IMG/VR virus record: IMGVR_UViG_2671180609_000027
Reading direction: 5' to 3' (one strand)
From: a virus
Taxonomy: Duplodnaviria; Heunggongvirae; Uroviricota; Caudoviricetes
Length of the DNA: 8,582 nucleotides
A model generated the notes under the pieces. That model made no database searches. It was not told where the DNA came from and worked only from the letters and a program-made list of their open reading frames with translations. The position numbers were made by a program, and so were the translations under genes. How positions within the stretch are numbered: position 1 is the stretch's first letter; the number at the start of each line of letters is the position of its first letter. Below are positions 3,363-8,582 of the stretch, one piece after another.

Positions 3363-3460
3363 NNNNNNNNNNNNNNNNNNNNNNNNNNNNNNNNNNNNNN
3401 NNNNNNNNNNNNNNNNNNNNNNNNNNNNNNNNNNNNNNNNNNNNNNNNNNNNNNNNNNNN
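3363..3460. other. Assembly gap: run of 98 N
   Basis: Literal n characters in the sequence; true length and content unknown. Confidence 0.99.
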
Positions 3461-5067: not shown

Positions 5068-5544
5068 ATGCTTAGTGGTAAAGACTTAGGCCGAGCGATA
5101 GAGCAGGCCATTAACAAAAAAATTGCATCAGGAGCCGTCAAATCAAAGGCGGAAATCGCACGTCATTTCAAAGTCCAACCACCATCAATCCATGACTGGA
5201 TTAAGAAAGGTTCGATAAGTAAAGACAAACTTCCAGAACTATGGCGTTTCTTTTCTGATGTGGTTGGTCCAGAGCATTGGGGGCTTAACGAATACCCCAT
5301 ACCAACCCCATCCACTTCAGATACAAAAAGTGAACTTTTAGACATAAACAGCCTTTATCAAGCCGCCTCTGATGAAAAAAGAGCAATTGTGGCTTTCCTC
5401 TTATCTGGAAATGCTACGGAGCCTAGTTGGGTTGATCATGACGTTCGTGCCTACATTGCCGCAATGGAAATGAAGGTAGCTAACTATCTGAAAAATCAAG
5501 AATCAAAACGGAAAAGCCAGAACATCACCAAGACAGGAACTTAA
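5068..5544 (+). CDS. racR: RacR-like prophage repressor (CI functional analogue), 158 aa
   Basis: Length and position (divergent from ydaS) match Rac racR. HTH segment SKAEIARHFKVQPPSIHDWIKKGSIS resembles the YdaS HTH. RBS AGGAGA 10 nt upstream of ATG 5068. Confidence 0.75.
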   Translation: MLSGKDLGRAIEQAINKKIASGAVKSKAEIARHFKVQPPSIHDWIKKGSISKDKLPELWRFFSDVVGPEHWGLNEYPIPTPSTSDTKSELLDINSLYQAASDEKRAIVAFLLSGNATEPSWVDHDVRAYIAAMEMKVANYLKNQESKRKSQNITKTGT

Positions 5545-5639: not shown

Positions 5640-5681
5640 TAGGCGTAGCCTATTGACAAGCAATTAGGCATTTCCTATAGT
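5640..5681 (+). promoter_or_regulatory. Second operator-promoter region: palindrome TAGGC-GTA-GCCTA (5640-5652) abutting -35 TTGACA (5653-5658), 17-bp spacer containing a degenerate TAGGC half-site (5665-5669), -10 TATAGT (5676-5681); rightward, toward ydaF-xis-int
   Basis: Near-consensus sigma70 hexamers with optimal spacing, read directly; same 13-bp operator consensus as at 4975-5013. Confidence 0.55.
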
Positions 5682-5859
5682 TTTCCCATACCAACCCATC
5701 CCGTCCCACACAATACAGGGCAATACCTAGAGTTACCCGGCAGTGGTCAGGGATTAAGTAGCCAGCCCGAGGCGTAAGAACATGACGGCAGGGTTCAACT
5801 TTAACTATGCAGCAGGTTTTTGTTCCGCTACCCCGGCGTTAAGGGGATATGAGGTCAGC

Positions 5860-6012
5860 ATGGATACTCTTGATCTTGGCAACAACGAATCTCTGGTGTG
5901 CGGCGTGTTTCCCAACCAGGACGGCACGTTCACCGCGATGACGTATACCAAAAGCAAAACGTTTAAAACCGAATCTGGCGCGCGTCGCTGGTTAGCAAGA
6001 AACTCTGACTAA
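5860..6012 (+). CDS. ydaF: YdaF-like small protein (DUF1391 family), 50 aa
   Basis: Sequence MDTLDLGNNESLVCGVFPNQDGTFTAMTYTKSKTFKTESGARRWLARNSD resembles the Rac/Qin small DUF1391 proteins as I recall them. SD GAGG 5 nt upstream of ATG 5860; an alternative start at 5782 would add 26 residues. Confidence 0.55.
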   Translation: MDTLDLGNNESLVCGVFPNQDGTFTAMTYTKSKTFKTESGARRWLARNSD

Positions 6013-6063
6013 TGAAATCTGGTAATTAAGGAATCCTCCACGGGGGGAGAGTGGTGCACACGC

Positions 6064-6087
6064 GCCGGACACAAGCAAGCATCCGGC
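6064..6087. terminator. Stem-loop between convergent genes (GCCGGA-12 nt-TCCGGC), possible bidirectional terminator
   Basis: 6-bp GC-rich inverted repeat between the ydaF stop (6012) and the stop of the minus-strand gene (6127); no clear U tract on either side. Confidence 0.2.
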
Positions 6088-6126
6088 ATGCTCTTTAACA
6101 ATCTGGATATCCATAACAGTAAAAAT

Positions 6127-6618
6127 CTACAGATTGCCGTTCAGTTTTCTGGCCAACTCTTCAATAGATGGAGGTGATACGTAATCCGGATTTTTATTCA
6201 TAAGAAACTGATTTTCACAGTACAGGCACCTGCTTTTATGAAAAAATTCATATTCTCTAACCGGGAATGGCTGAAGTATCGATACTATCTTTTGTCCAAA
6301 ACATTTTGGACAAAGATGCATGATTATGCTGCCGCCGTTCACGGTTACCTCCTTCGAGTACACAAAAGTTCCCGACTCAAGTTGGCTAAGGATATAACCT
6401 TCCGTCTGAGCCTCAAAGTTTTCAAATTCTGCAATTTTAGCTTTGAGAGAAGCATTTATTTCTTGATAAGTGCCCACCAGCTCAACGAGAGACACGCATT
6501 CGCGCTGAATAGATGCAAGCTTTGAGTTCAGTTCACCAATAGCCGCATTTACTTCAGCTTGAGTTTTTGCCTCGTTCATTAGTTTTGCAATCTGGGCGGT
6601 TTCACGAATAGCCGTCAT
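6127..6618 (-). CDS. Hypothetical protein (about 163 aa) with an N-terminal predicted coiled coil and a C-terminal CxxC-x21-CxxC zinc-ribbon-like motif; AT-rich accessory gene (moron) on the strand opposite to its neighbours
   Basis: ORF 6127-6795; upstream of ATG 6618 the translation is low-complexity, so ATG 6618 (or GTG 6642 with AAGAG upstream) is the likely start. Heptad-like N-terminus (IAKLMNEAKTQAEVNAAIGELNSKLASIQRE...), then HLCPKCFGQK...SRCLYCENQF. Visibly lower GC than flanks (by eye, not computed). No transmembrane segment. Confidence 0.6.
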   Translation of the reverse strand: MTAIRETAQIAKLMNEAKTQAEVNAAIGELNSKLASIQRECVSLVELVGTYQEINASLKAKIAEFENFEAQTEGYILSQLESGTFVYSKEVTVNGGSIIMHLCPKCFGQKIVSILQPFPVREYEFFHKSRCLYCENQFLMNKNPDYVSPPSIEELARKLNGNL

Positions 6619-6656
6619 TGCTGCCGTTAATTCAGCGATCACATTCAATACTCTTA

Positions 6657-6702
6657 TTGTTGTTGGGGATATCCAGATTAACAAGATCCTTGTTGTTGGG
6701 GA
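6657..6702. repeat. 13-bp direct repeat TTGTTGTTGGGGA x2 (6657-6669 and 6690-6702), 33 bp apart
   Basis: Exact match read from the sequence; lies between the start of the AT-rich gene and the truncated exonuclease frame. Confidence 0.6.
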
Positions 6703-6726
6703 ATAACGGGGACCACCTCGCCTGAC

Positions 6727-7164
6727 GTGGTAAAAAGCAGGCACACAACACGAAAGCACACGGCGAGGGACACCATTAAATGGTGGCTTAAGCAATCACG
6801 CGAAGCGCAATCTGCCATTATGACCGATGAAATCCCGTTAGATGATGCACTGTTACAATTGCGGGAATTTATCGACGAAAACTCCGGTGAATTTTTTGTT
6901 CAGGTCTGGGGAAATGGAGCCAACTTCGACAACACGATTTTGCGCCGTTCATACGAACGGCAGGGGATCCCCTGCCCGTGGCGTTACTACAACGATCGCG
7001 ATGTACGCACAATCGTTGAGCTGGGGAAAGCCATAGACTTCGATGCCAGAACGGCTATTCCATTCGAAGGTGAGCGCCATAATGCACTTGATGACGCCCG
7101 TTACCAGGCAAAATACGTTTCAGTTATCTGGCAAAAACTGATCCCGAGTCAGGCTGATTTTTAA
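6727..7164 (+). pseudogene. 5'-truncated DEDDh-type (DnaQ-like) 3'-5' exonuclease remnant; conserved part starts near 6820
   Basis: Contains Exo II-like VWGNGANFDNTIL and Exo III-like ERHNALDDARYQAKY (H-x4-D) motifs but no Exo I (D-x-E) motif. The frame opens only at 6682 after a TAA at 6679-6681 and has no ATG before 6820 (track start is GTG 6727); the expected ~60 N-terminal residues are absent. Confidence 0.6.
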
Positions 7165-7225
7165 TGTTCAACCGTCGCCAGTTGTCGTTGATATTCTGCA
7201 ACTGGCGCGTTCCGGAGTGATAGCC

Positions 7226-7495
7226 ATGAGCGAACAGTACCTGATAACGCTCGACGAGTGGAAACCAAAACGGTTCAGTCTCCCAATAACAAACACTACC
7301 CTGGTGAAATACGGAAAACTAGGATACATCGTTCCAAGACCACAAAAAATTCGTGGGCGTTGGCTGATAGATCGCCGAGCAGTATTTGTTGGGCCTGGTG
7401 AAACGGGAATTGCGCCGGAAATTCATACTGGCGATGATGATGCACTGAAGGAGATTTTAACTCATGTCACCGAGGCCACGAAAAAACAGCACTGA
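7226..7495 (+). CDS. xis: Excisionase (lambda Xis-like), 89 aa
   Basis: N-terminus YLITLDEWKPKR resembles lambda Xis YLTLQEWNARQR. Immediately upstream of int and overlapping it by 32 nt, as xis and int overlap in lambda. SD GGAG (7213-7216) 9 nt before ATG 7226; the track ORF begins at GTG 7217. Confidence 0.7.
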   Translation: MSEQYLITLDEWKPKRFSLPITNTTLVKYGKLGYIVPRPQKIRGRWLIDRRAVFVGPGETGIAPEIHTGDDDALKEILTHVTEATKKQH

Positions 7496-8582
7496 CGTAG
7501 CCGGTCTTTACGAAAAGTTTGATCGCAGAACTGGCAGAGTTTACTACCAGTATAAAAATCCTGTGACTGGAAAATTTCACGGACTCGGAACAGACAAAGG
7601 TAAGGCAGAAAAAATCGCTTCCACAGCCAATCAGCGAATAGCTGCAGCAGAAGCTGAATATTTCATGCGCAAAATTGATGAAAGTCCGTCAGCAACAAAA
7701 CGTCGGGGTATCAGATTAAAGGCATGGGTTGATCGATATCTGAAAATACAGGACACGCGACTGAAAAATGGAGATATTGCAGCTACAACTCACAAAGAAA
7801 AAACTCGAATGGCTGCATACCTGGTTTCCCGTCTGGGAAACCACCCATTGAAAGAACTGGAAGTAAGAGACTTTGCATTAATACTGGATGAGTGGCTGGA
7901 TAAAGACATGGTCAGTACAGCGAGAGTAAATCGTGGATTATGGGTTGATATTTATAAAGAAGCACAGCATGCAGGGGAAGTTCCTCCTGGATGGAATCCT
8001 CCGGAGGCTACCCGTAAACCGATCCCTAAAGTAACCAGAGCCAGGCTCACCATGGAAGACTGGCAAAAAATTTACAATGCAACGCCTGAAAAACACTTTA
8101 TCCGTAACGCAATGCTTCTTGCGATTGTTACTGGTCAGCGCCGTGATGACATTTGCCACATGCGTTTTTCAGATGTGTGGAACGAACACTTGCATATCAC
8201 CCAGGGAAAAACCGGAATGCGTCTGGCGTTACCGCTTACACTACGCTGTGATGCCATTGGGATAACGTTAAAAGAAGTTATTGATGGGTGCCGAGACAGA
8301 ATATTAAGTCCATATCTAATCCATAGTCGGCACCAGAAACAACCGAAGCCGATGAGTAAAGACAACCTGAGCGACTACTTTGCCAAAGCACGGGATCTGG
8401 CTGGGGTAATTCCACCAGCAGGAAAAACTCCGCCAACATTTCATGAACAACGCTCTCTATCAGAACGGCTGTACCGTGCACAGGGTATCGATACAAAAAC
8501 ATTACTAGGACATAAAGTCCAGGCAACCACCGATCGCTATAACGATACTCGAGGTCAGGAATGGGTTAAGTTGGTTATTTGA
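7464..8582 (+). CDS. int: Lambda-family tyrosine integrase (site-specific recombinase), 372 aa
   Basis: C-terminus FHEQRSLSERLY...LLGHKVQATTDRYNDTRGQEWVKLVI parallels the lambda Int C-terminus as I recall it (FHELRSLSARLY...LLGHKSDTMASQYRDDRGREWDKIEIK), including the H-x-x-R box, LLGH and the catalytic Tyr. Complete ORF ending with TGA at the window edge. Confidence 0.9.
   Translation: MSPRPRKNSTDVAGLYEKFDRRTGRVYYQYKNPVTGKFHGLGTDKGKAEKIASTANQRIAAAEAEYFMRKIDESPSATKRRGIRLKAWVDRYLKIQDTRLKNGDIAATTHKEKTRMAAYLVSRLGNHPLKELEVRDFALILDEWLDKDMVSTARVNRGLWVDIYKEAQHAGEVPPGWNPPEATRKPIPKVTRARLTMEDWQKIYNATPEKHFIRNAMLLAIVTGQRRDDICHMRFSDVWNEHLHITQGKTGMRLALPLTLRCDAIGITLKEVIDGCRDRILSPYLIHSRHQKQPKPMSKDNLSDYFAKARDLAGVIPPAGKTPPTFHEQRSLSERLYRAQGIDTKTLLGHKVQATTDRYNDTRGQEWVKLVI

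Follow-up and report, generated by a model that had tools for sequence, protein, structure and literature searches.

A Rip1-family gene in the sieB position of a defective Escherichia coli O157:H7 prophage, behind a leader of the sieB/sas type

We analyzed a stretch of 8,582 nucleotides (nt), IMG/VR virus record IMGVR_UViG_2671180609_000027 (hereafter the window), with attention to a single minus-strand gene that lies between the immunity region and the integration genes and that proves to belong to the Rip1 family of prophage defense proteins. The window is 100% identical to many Escherichia coli O157:H7 chromosomes, such as EC4115 (NC_011353.1, 1485217-1488799), and constitutes one end of a RacR-immunity lambdoid prophage adjoining potC. 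Along the plus strand the order is racR, a DUF1391 gene, the target gene (minus strand), an exonuclease remnant, xis and int. The opposite-strand placement reported in a preliminary description of this DNA is thus borne out: racR, the exonuclease remnant, xis and int all lie on the plus strand, and the target gene is convergent with the DUF1391 gene.

Translation of the window yields an intact minus-strand open reading frame (ORF) ending at 6127. We place the coding sequence at 6127-6642 (minus strand; 171 amino acids (aa), GTG start at 6642, TAG stop at 6127-6129) because the N-terminal MIAEL is kept in the alignment of homologues, because the PGAP annotation of this gene (WP_000559928.1, “hypothetical protein”) likewise starts at GTG 6642, and because a Shine-Dalgarno-like AAGAG precedes it. 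The latter, read from the sequence at 6651-6655 on the minus strand, lies 8 nt 5′ of the GTG and is kept in five cassettes. Of the bounds given earlier, 6127-6618, the end is therefore retained, but the ATG at 6618, which had given a protein of 163 aa, is codon 9 of the 171-aa frame. Comparison with three alleles gave ratios of nonsynonymous to synonymous substitution rates (dN/dS) of 0.12-0.22, and we therefore take the ORF to be a protein-coding gene under purifying selection. Its GC content of 41.9% is lower than that of the window (48.6%), as the earlier label of an AT-rich gene implied, but the difference is modest and is shared by racR (42.6%) and int (45.3%).

The protein carries four cysteines in two CxxC motifs, CPKC at residues 111-114 (Cys111 and Cys114) and CLYC at 139-142 (Cys139 and Cys142), with 24 residues between the motifs rather than the 21 counted previously. 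None of the four varies among 23 close and 41 distant homologues. Y83 is likewise invariant over the 41 diverse members, and L66, Y95 and the S121, L123 and Q124 of an SILQ motif are nearly so. An AlphaFold2 model computed from the alignment (mean predicted local distance difference test score 90.8) shows two long helices (residues 3-24 and 28-79) and, C-terminal to them, a six-stranded beta-rich domain that carries the four cysteines. The helical N-terminal part first taken for a coiled coil of about 100 aa is thus present, but at a shorter length (residues 3-79, about 77 aa in the model). Neither a transmembrane segment nor a signal peptide is seen in the model, which has the look of a soluble helical hairpin joined to a zinc-ribbon-like domain. 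Eisenberg hydrophobic moments in 18-residue windows are 0.27-0.44 for residues 1-54 and lower beyond, values that are compatible with amphipathic helices and are not diagnostic of them.

Searches of Pfam, NCBIfam and PADLOC gave only chance-level coiled-coil matches for the protein (E 0.033 in PADLOC-DB v2 of 2023, a library older than Rip1), and scanning 41 family members against Pfam identified no family, two of the 41 giving weak matches to zinc-ribbon families. Among PHROGs, the protein matches phrog_1244 over its whole length (E 2.7e-56), a group whose function is listed as “unknown”. A Foldseek search of the Protein Data Bank (PDB) returned as its only significant matches chains L and M of entry 9oox (E 2.8e-7 and 6.6e-7, probability 1.0, 28% identity); the match to chain M has template modeling scores of 0.55 (query) and 0.71 (target) with a root-mean-square deviation of 3.6 Å over 120 columns, and the next PDB match has an E of 0.19. 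Nothing below E 1e-3 was found in a fold search of BFVD. According to its title, 9oox, released on 2026-02-04, is a cryo-electron microscopy (cryo-EM) structure of Escherichia phage HK446 Rip1 (“ring interacting pore 1”) with the Enterobacteria phage T6 small terminase. The sequence relationship to chain L is detectable with the single protein (phmmer, E 3.6e-7), is stronger with a profile of the close enterobacterial clade (E 3.6e-23, residues 16-160 of 164) and is strongest with a profile of 41 members (E 5e-35, chain residues 15-159 of 164), and the four cysteines align with both CxxC motifs of HK446 Rip1. The protein gp30 of Pseudomonas phage JBD30 is in turn related to HK446 Rip1 (E 2e-18) and is found directly from the target by tblastn (31% identity, E 7e-11). 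We conclude that the target protein belongs to the Rip1 family. The profile and fold searches that had been proposed as a check thus gave a clear answer: the protein, earlier said to match no nameable family, has one with a solved structure, and a gene put forward as the best local candidate for an undescribed function falls in a family already described (Patel et al. 2026, Nature 651:1060, cited in PMC13434031).

Other members of the family are numerous. Among phage genomes, tblastn found close copies (94% identity) in the induced ECOR phages PhiR49_1 and PhiR29, and more distant ones in Klebsiella phages (51%) and in HK620 (hkaP), HK629 and HK630 (30%). A word-indexed search gave 109 relatives, every one of them “hypothetical”, and a profile search run exhaustively over 1.84 billion cluster representatives gave 3362 at E ≤1e-3, 1843 of them at ≤1e-10, which are nearly all 145-180 aa long, matched over their full length and of one common layout. 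HkaP of HK620 shares with the target the same slot and leader and 30% identity. Neither record names a function: phrog_1244 has “unknown”, and hkaP has the label “putative superinfection exclusion protein”, derived from its position. Both are earlier entries for the Rip1 family, made before it had a name, and do not constitute a separate system. A full-text literature search for hkaP found only a phage-engineering paper that uses the flanking intergenic regions.

Rip1 was described by Patel, McCarthy, Taylor et al. (2026, Nature 651:1060, doi 10.1038/s41586-025-10075-1), and its properties are given here as summarized in section 5 of a review (PMC13434031); a conference report gives the same picture. 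In that summary, Rip1 is a prophage protein encoded between the terminase genes of a Pseudomonas aeruginosa prophage and is by itself non-toxic. It assembles around small-terminase or portal rings of the phage. Pseudomonas phages escape through mutations in the portal and E. coli phages through mutations in the small terminase, and cryo-EM shows 12 Rip1 protomers surrounding an 11-mer small-terminase ring, with the C-terminal half touching the ring and the N-terminal part forming an amphipathic helix. The complexes are reported in the same section to form pores, to release dye from liposomes and to make holes in cells; the rounding of infected cells suggests disruption of the inner membrane, and the infected cell is killed early. 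Homologues are said there to be widespread in proteobacteria, mainly in prophages.

The O157 protein resembles this system (HK446 Rip1 and the gp30 family of the P. aeruginosa Casadabanvirus phages JBD30 and DMS3) in several respects. The homology extends over essentially the full length (171 aa in O157, 164 aa in HK446), both consist of long N-terminal helices and a C-terminal beta domain that holds four cysteines and the SILQ motif, both are single prophage-borne genes on the strand opposite the surrounding operon, and HK446 rip1 has the same sieB/sas-type leader. They differ in that the O157 protein is just 28% identical to HK446 Rip1 and 31% to JBD30 gp30, in that it falls in a separate enterobacterial clade that has a C-terminal tail (...NPDYVSPPSIEELARKLNGNL), and in that its gene resides in a defective RacR-immunity prophage at potC. 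The genomic setting varies across the family: in HK446 and HK620, rip1 and hkaP are opposite-strand genes flanked by N and cIII, and the gene for JBD30 gp30 lies between terminase genes.

Three other systems from the literature were considered and set aside. Tab, the tail assembly blocker encoded by JBD26 gene 31 (Patel et al. 2024, PMC10884400), is also a prophage-expressed defense acting on a late virion-assembly protein, and it fills the JBD26 slot equivalent to that of the Pseudomonas Rip1 family. It is, however, a protein of 83 residues reported to lack similarity to known proteins, which blocks tail assembly via the tape measure protein and requires an anti-Tab partner (PMC10884400); it is not homologous to the Rip1-like protein, forms no pores and is therefore an unrelated occupant of the same Pseudomonas slot. 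Zip (JBD26 gene 61) is a different gene that targets PilZ, and the exclusion genes of Fc02 are sited at the repressor locus rather than at the Rip1-family locus.

The O157 gene sits precisely in the sieB position of Rac, and lambda and P22 likewise carry sieB there. racR (5068-5544, plus strand; NCBIfam RacR, E 8.8e-74) is followed by the DUF1391 gene (YdaF/YdfA-like; 5860-6012, plus strand), which is convergent with the Rip1-like gene and occupies the position that ydaF has beside sieB in the Rac prophage of K-12, where the order is racR, ydaG, ydaF (DUF1391), sieB (opposite strand), kilR, recE and recT. The preliminary description had set the single opposite-strand gene of this interval in contrast to Rac; one such gene is indeed present here, but K-12 Rac sieB is itself an opposite-strand gene at the same position. 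Nor does the gene fill the space of recET and kilR, as had been supposed, for it is already present in intact relatives and the DNA beyond it has been deleted in O157. In two intact potC prophages (L006 and L007), the repressor and the DUF1391 gene are followed by the same opposite-strand gene, dicB, a DUF1482 gene, a gene for an 823-aa exonuclease, xis and int, with one of the two additionally having ydfB and an RNA-binding protein after DUF1391. By blastn, window 5700-6766 corresponds to L007 4686-5752 and window 6767-8580 to L007 8701-10514, which, together with the annotation of L006 and L007, defines a deletion junction at 6766/6767 where 2948 bp (L007 5753-8700) have been lost relative to the intact prophages. 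The deletion took dicB, the DUF1482 gene and 2.07 kb from the 5′ end of the exonuclease gene, and it is because of this loss that the neighborhood of the O157 gene looks empty. What remains of the exonuclease is a 3′ remnant (6767-7164, plus strand; Rv2179c-like 3′-5′ exonuclease) that matches positions 47-177 of the 177 of Pfam PF16473 and that PGAP treats as a pseudogene without its N-terminus, so that the truncated neighbor had been read correctly. The deletion ends 124 bp upstream of the Rip1-like start codon, just past a sas-like element, and leaves both this element and the cassette whole.

Two further observations concern the surroundings. About 525 bp between the Rip1-like gene and dicB are unannotated in the intact prophages (L006 5579-6103 and L007 5630-6157). 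In the Qin prophage of K-12, dicB is preceded by the small RNA dicF; an Rfam search at the gathering threshold found no DicF in this interval of L006 and L007 and nothing in the window or three relatives. Elsewhere in the window, a run of 98 N at 3363-3460, in the replication-gene region (a DnaT-like gene in the EC4115 annotation), makes ORF calls across it unreliable.

The sas-like element is a homologue of the P22 sas antisense RNA (6632-6759, plus strand) and lies antisense to the Rip1-like gene from its promoter through its leader and Shine-Dalgarno sequence to its start codon. In the literature, sas pairs with the start of the sieB mRNA and shifts translation from SieB to Esc, which in the P22virB-3 record (OQ031658; L131 127-705) is annotated as SieB minus its first 24 codons. 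Using the P22 sas sequence in Table 2 of PMC13397905, we found that window 6632-6759 (plus strand) aligns over the full 127 nt of sas and that blastn with this sequence finds 140 phage records, including lambda (94%), HK446 (87%) and HK630 (84%). The 3′ 45 nt of sas are nearly invariant in O157, P22, HK446 and HK620, and the proteins encoded downstream differ or are about 28-30% identical. Within this part lies a conserved hairpin block, upstream of the promoter, with a core motif CCACGTCAGGCGAGGTGG (6713-6730, minus strand) that sits inside overlapping GCCTG/CAGGC and CCAC/GTGG inverted repeats and occurs once in the window against 0.01 occurrences expected. The block TGCCTG(T)CTTTTAACCAC(A/G)TCAGGC..GGTGG and two CCCC-ACA repeats are kept in L006, HK446 rip1 and HK620 hkaP, the last two of which encode proteins about 28-30% identical to the target despite the kept leader. 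The conserved leader motif is absent from K-12 Rac sieB. A specific RNA fold for the sas-like region was dropped for lack of covariation or thermodynamic support (1 of 15 pairs compensatory; folding z-score -0.34), and its conservation is one of primary sequence.

The leader also contains two exact copies of a 13-nt direct repeat (TTGTTGTTGGGGA on the plus strand, which includes CCCCAACAACAA as read on the gene strand), at 6657-6669 and 6690-6702 on the minus strand, one of which overlaps the -35 and the other of which lies in the leader abutting the Shine-Dalgarno sequence. The equivalent in P22, HK446 and HK620 is CCCCTACAG, again in two copies at the same places, and such repeats could serve as an operator, enhance translation or provide an Hfq-type (ARN)n site. 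A probable promoter at 6670-6707 (minus strand) was placed by alignment: in the P22 record OQ031658 the promoter labeled “sieB RNA start site” lies 38-68 nt before the ATG of sieB, and transferring it puts a -10-like GTTAAT at 6682-6677, a weak -35 overlapping the first CCCCAACAACAA copy, and a start near 6670. The O157 GTTAAT aligns with TATAAT in L006 and TAAAAT in HK446. On the other strand, a scan found a strong, near-consensus sigma-70-like promoter (TTGACA, 17-nt spacer, TATAGT; 11 of 12 matches) at 5653-5681 (plus strand), between racR and DUF1391. Judging from gene order, it probably drives the early-left operon, and transcription from it would cross the entire Rip1-like gene in the antisense direction.

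The resemblance to the SieB/Esc/sas system of P22 and lambda, and to K-12 Rac sieB, is therefore one of setting. In each case an opposite-strand gene lies just past the immunity region and ydaF/DUF1391, and the region upstream of the Rip1-like gene is homologous to the promoter, leader and sas of P22/lambda sieB. Both proteins, at roughly 160-190 aa, would also be prophage-expressed defenses of the abortive type, the O157 protein by analogy with its relatives. The proteins themselves, however, show no similarity (BLASTP against K-12 SieB, E 40; no match to PF14163), and the Rip1-like protein lacks predicted membrane spans and a conserved internal start equivalent to that of Esc. An Esc-like start was considered at the in-frame Met codons 9 and 23 (M9 and M23) and dropped because neither is conserved in the family. 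Given the shared slot and leader, we conclude that what is held in common with SieB is regulation and position and not protein homology.

The gene behaves as a moron cassette. A segment of 661 bp (6090-6750), comprising 108 bp upstream, the coding sequence and 37 bp of 3′ flank, is 93.6% identical to copies in DLP12-like and PhiR49_1 prophages, where its neighbors are a cI-type repressor on one side and the yfdP-yfdT operon on the other and the flanks are otherwise unrelated. As in HK446 and HK620, the Rip1-like gene of the potC and DLP12-like prophages forms its own opposite-strand unit inside the early-left operon. Conservation as a core gene at this position, which the preliminary description had raised as a point against a cargo function, holds in one respect, for intact potC prophages do carry the gene there, but what is carried is a swappable cassette and not a core component. 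The coding sequence of the L006 allele is only 76% identical. Window 6013-6760, which holds the cassette, is matched in 682 of 5426 complete E. coli genomes, with many sampled O157:H7 among the matches, and at least 288 complete genomes match this 748-bp query at ≥99% identity. The ORF is also bracketed by a perfect 13-bp inverted repeat (AATCTGGATATCC / GGATATCCAGATT, 6100-6112 and 6667-6679), which extends to 26 nt at 81% and may serve in protein binding or in recombination. The idea that the two ends of the mRNA pair through this repeat is unsupported, since the divergent L006 allele is changed in the upstream copy only.

The leader precedes many genes other than rip1. Scanning IMG/VR with the 18-nt core motif (CCACRTCAGGCNNGGTGG) gave at least 120 loci (L010-L129), of which 109 could be scored for a downstream ORF of ≥45 aa. 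Among the matches listed, the ORF was Rip1-like at 18 of the 109 scored loci, SieB (193 aa; PF14163, E 2.5e-22) at 15, a 150-aa family (phrog_5286) at another 15, a 108-aa membrane protein at 13, a 164-aa membrane protein (phrog_6315) at six, an 81-aa zinc-ribbon protein at six and phrog_8894 at two, with other small groups and singletons making up the remainder. The sieB/sas-type leader is thus a shared front end for exchangeable cargo, and most of the cargos in these matches are without known function. Rip1 cassettes may have inherited sas-mediated control along with the leader, a possible route to self- or kin-immunity, and the cargos without a function may be further defense genes. One can go further and picture the leader as a portable chassis for expression and self-immunity into which lambdoid phages swap unrelated defense cargos, with the sas-like RNA or early-left read-through switching Rip1 off; we regard this larger idea as a tentative one, which may well prove wrong. 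If it is true, kin phages with the same leader would be immune to resident Rip1, and the function-less cargos would be new defense proteins.

Taken together, the family assignment, domain layout, invariant cysteines, purifying selection, mobility, slot and sieB/sas-type leader lead us to consider it probable that the O157 gene encodes a Rip1-family anti-phage protein and is swappable cargo, a moron, that occupies the sieB slot in a defective lambdoid prophage of O157:H7 with RacR immunity. The guess made at the outset, that such a slot would carry a superinfection-exclusion or anti-phage defense gene, gains support from membership in the Rip1 family, an experimentally characterized prophage defense, and from the position of the gene in the sieB slot behind a sieB-type leader. 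By analogy with its relatives, we expect the O157 protein to combine sensor and effector in a single polypeptide and to mediate late abortive infection in response to ring-shaped packaging proteins. According to this model, the prophage would express the protein from its own weak promoter, and it would be harmless by itself. Late in infection by an invading phage, the small terminase (or the portal) would assemble as a ring, around which the C-terminal four-cysteine domains of about twelve protomers would bind. Their long N-terminal amphipathic helices would thereby be brought together to form a pore in the inner membrane, and the cell would be permeabilized or lysed before virions mature, thus aborting the infection and protecting neighboring cells. 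When a phage with the same leader grows lytically, Rip1 synthesis would be damped by the sas-like antisense RNA or by early-left read-through. Expression in O157, the trigger, pore formation and antisense damping are all steps that we infer from the relatives and from the layout of the locus.

Several points weigh against this interpretation. The identity to the characterized Rip1 proteins is only 28-31%, so that trigger specificity, and even activity, could differ, and the mechanism proposed for the O157 protein is carried over from those relatives, for which our sources are a review summary, a conference report and a PDB title. By simple hydrophobic-moment calculation the amphipathicity of the N-terminal part is only moderate, with a maximum of 0.44. 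A generic scan for sigma-70 promoters and terminators called neither for the gene, and the host prophage is decayed, with a 2.9-kb deletion that has rearranged the DNA 124 bp from the start codon. Finally, an older secondary source assigns a different action to a member of the family, as discussed below.

The state of the prophage lends itself to a second explanation, namely that the gene is an intact but idle passenger, unexpressed or without a trigger among the phages that O157 meets, and has no present role. In addition to the 2948-bp deletion, the neighboring exonuclease pseudogene and the absence of a consensus promoter or terminator in the scan, the -10 GTTAAT lacks the key A at position 2 that L006 has in its TATAAT. 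An idle gene sits poorly, however, with an ORF that is intact and present at ≥99% identity in at least 288 complete genomes, with a dN/dS of 0.12 even against the closest allele, with a leader conserved in its entirety, promoter region included, between cassettes of different prophages, and with a deletion that stops short of the cassette and its sas-like element. We therefore consider idleness unlikely. A classical superinfection-exclusion function, in which the protein would block DNA entry at the envelope rather than act late as a pore-forming abortive system, seems to us very unlikely. In its favor, Valentova et al. 2024 state, in the introduction and a supplementary table, that the JBD30 gp30 moron “blocks phage genome injection”, citing Tsao et al. 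2018. That statement is superseded by the structural and genetic work, in which, according to the review summary (PMC13434031), the family binds small-terminase rings and escape arises in terminase or portal, both late cytoplasmic proteins; it also fits poorly with a protein modeled without a transmembrane segment or signal peptide. The annotation of HK620 hkaP as a “putative superinfection exclusion protein” is based on position alone, and residence in the sieB slot argues little for an entry block when SieB itself is abortive. Least probable of all, to the point that we hardly credit it, is a zinc-ribbon nucleic-acid-binding regulator of prophage or host genes with no effector role in defense: a coiled-coil dimer with a Cys4 finger is an architecture common in regulators, two of the 41 members give weak Pfam zinc-ribbon matches and the gene adjoins the immunity region, but Pfam, NCBIfam and PDB sequence and fold searches gave no significant match to a DNA- or RNA-binding family, the sole strong match is to Rip1, whose C-terminal half contacts a protein ring, and the Pseudomonas members lie between terminase genes, a location unfit for immunity regulation.

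If the gene does encode a Rip1-type defense, a protein so far called “hypothetical”, which occurs in 682 of 5426 complete E. coli genomes, or about one in eight, gains both a name and a testable mechanism, that of ring-triggered, pore-forming abortive infection. The Rip1 family was already known; what is new is its O157 member, as a candidate defense gene, and the observation of the sas leader. The finding bears on phage therapy and on the biocontrol of enterohemorrhagic E. coli because such a gene can abort infection by phages whose packaging proteins are recognized. Rip1 genes in enteric lambdoid phages have taken the place of sieB behind the same promoter and antisense-RNA leader, and this replacement points to a ready-made route to regulation and self-immunity. 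The leader flags a compact hotspot that sequence searches can find and where more defense cargos can be sought.

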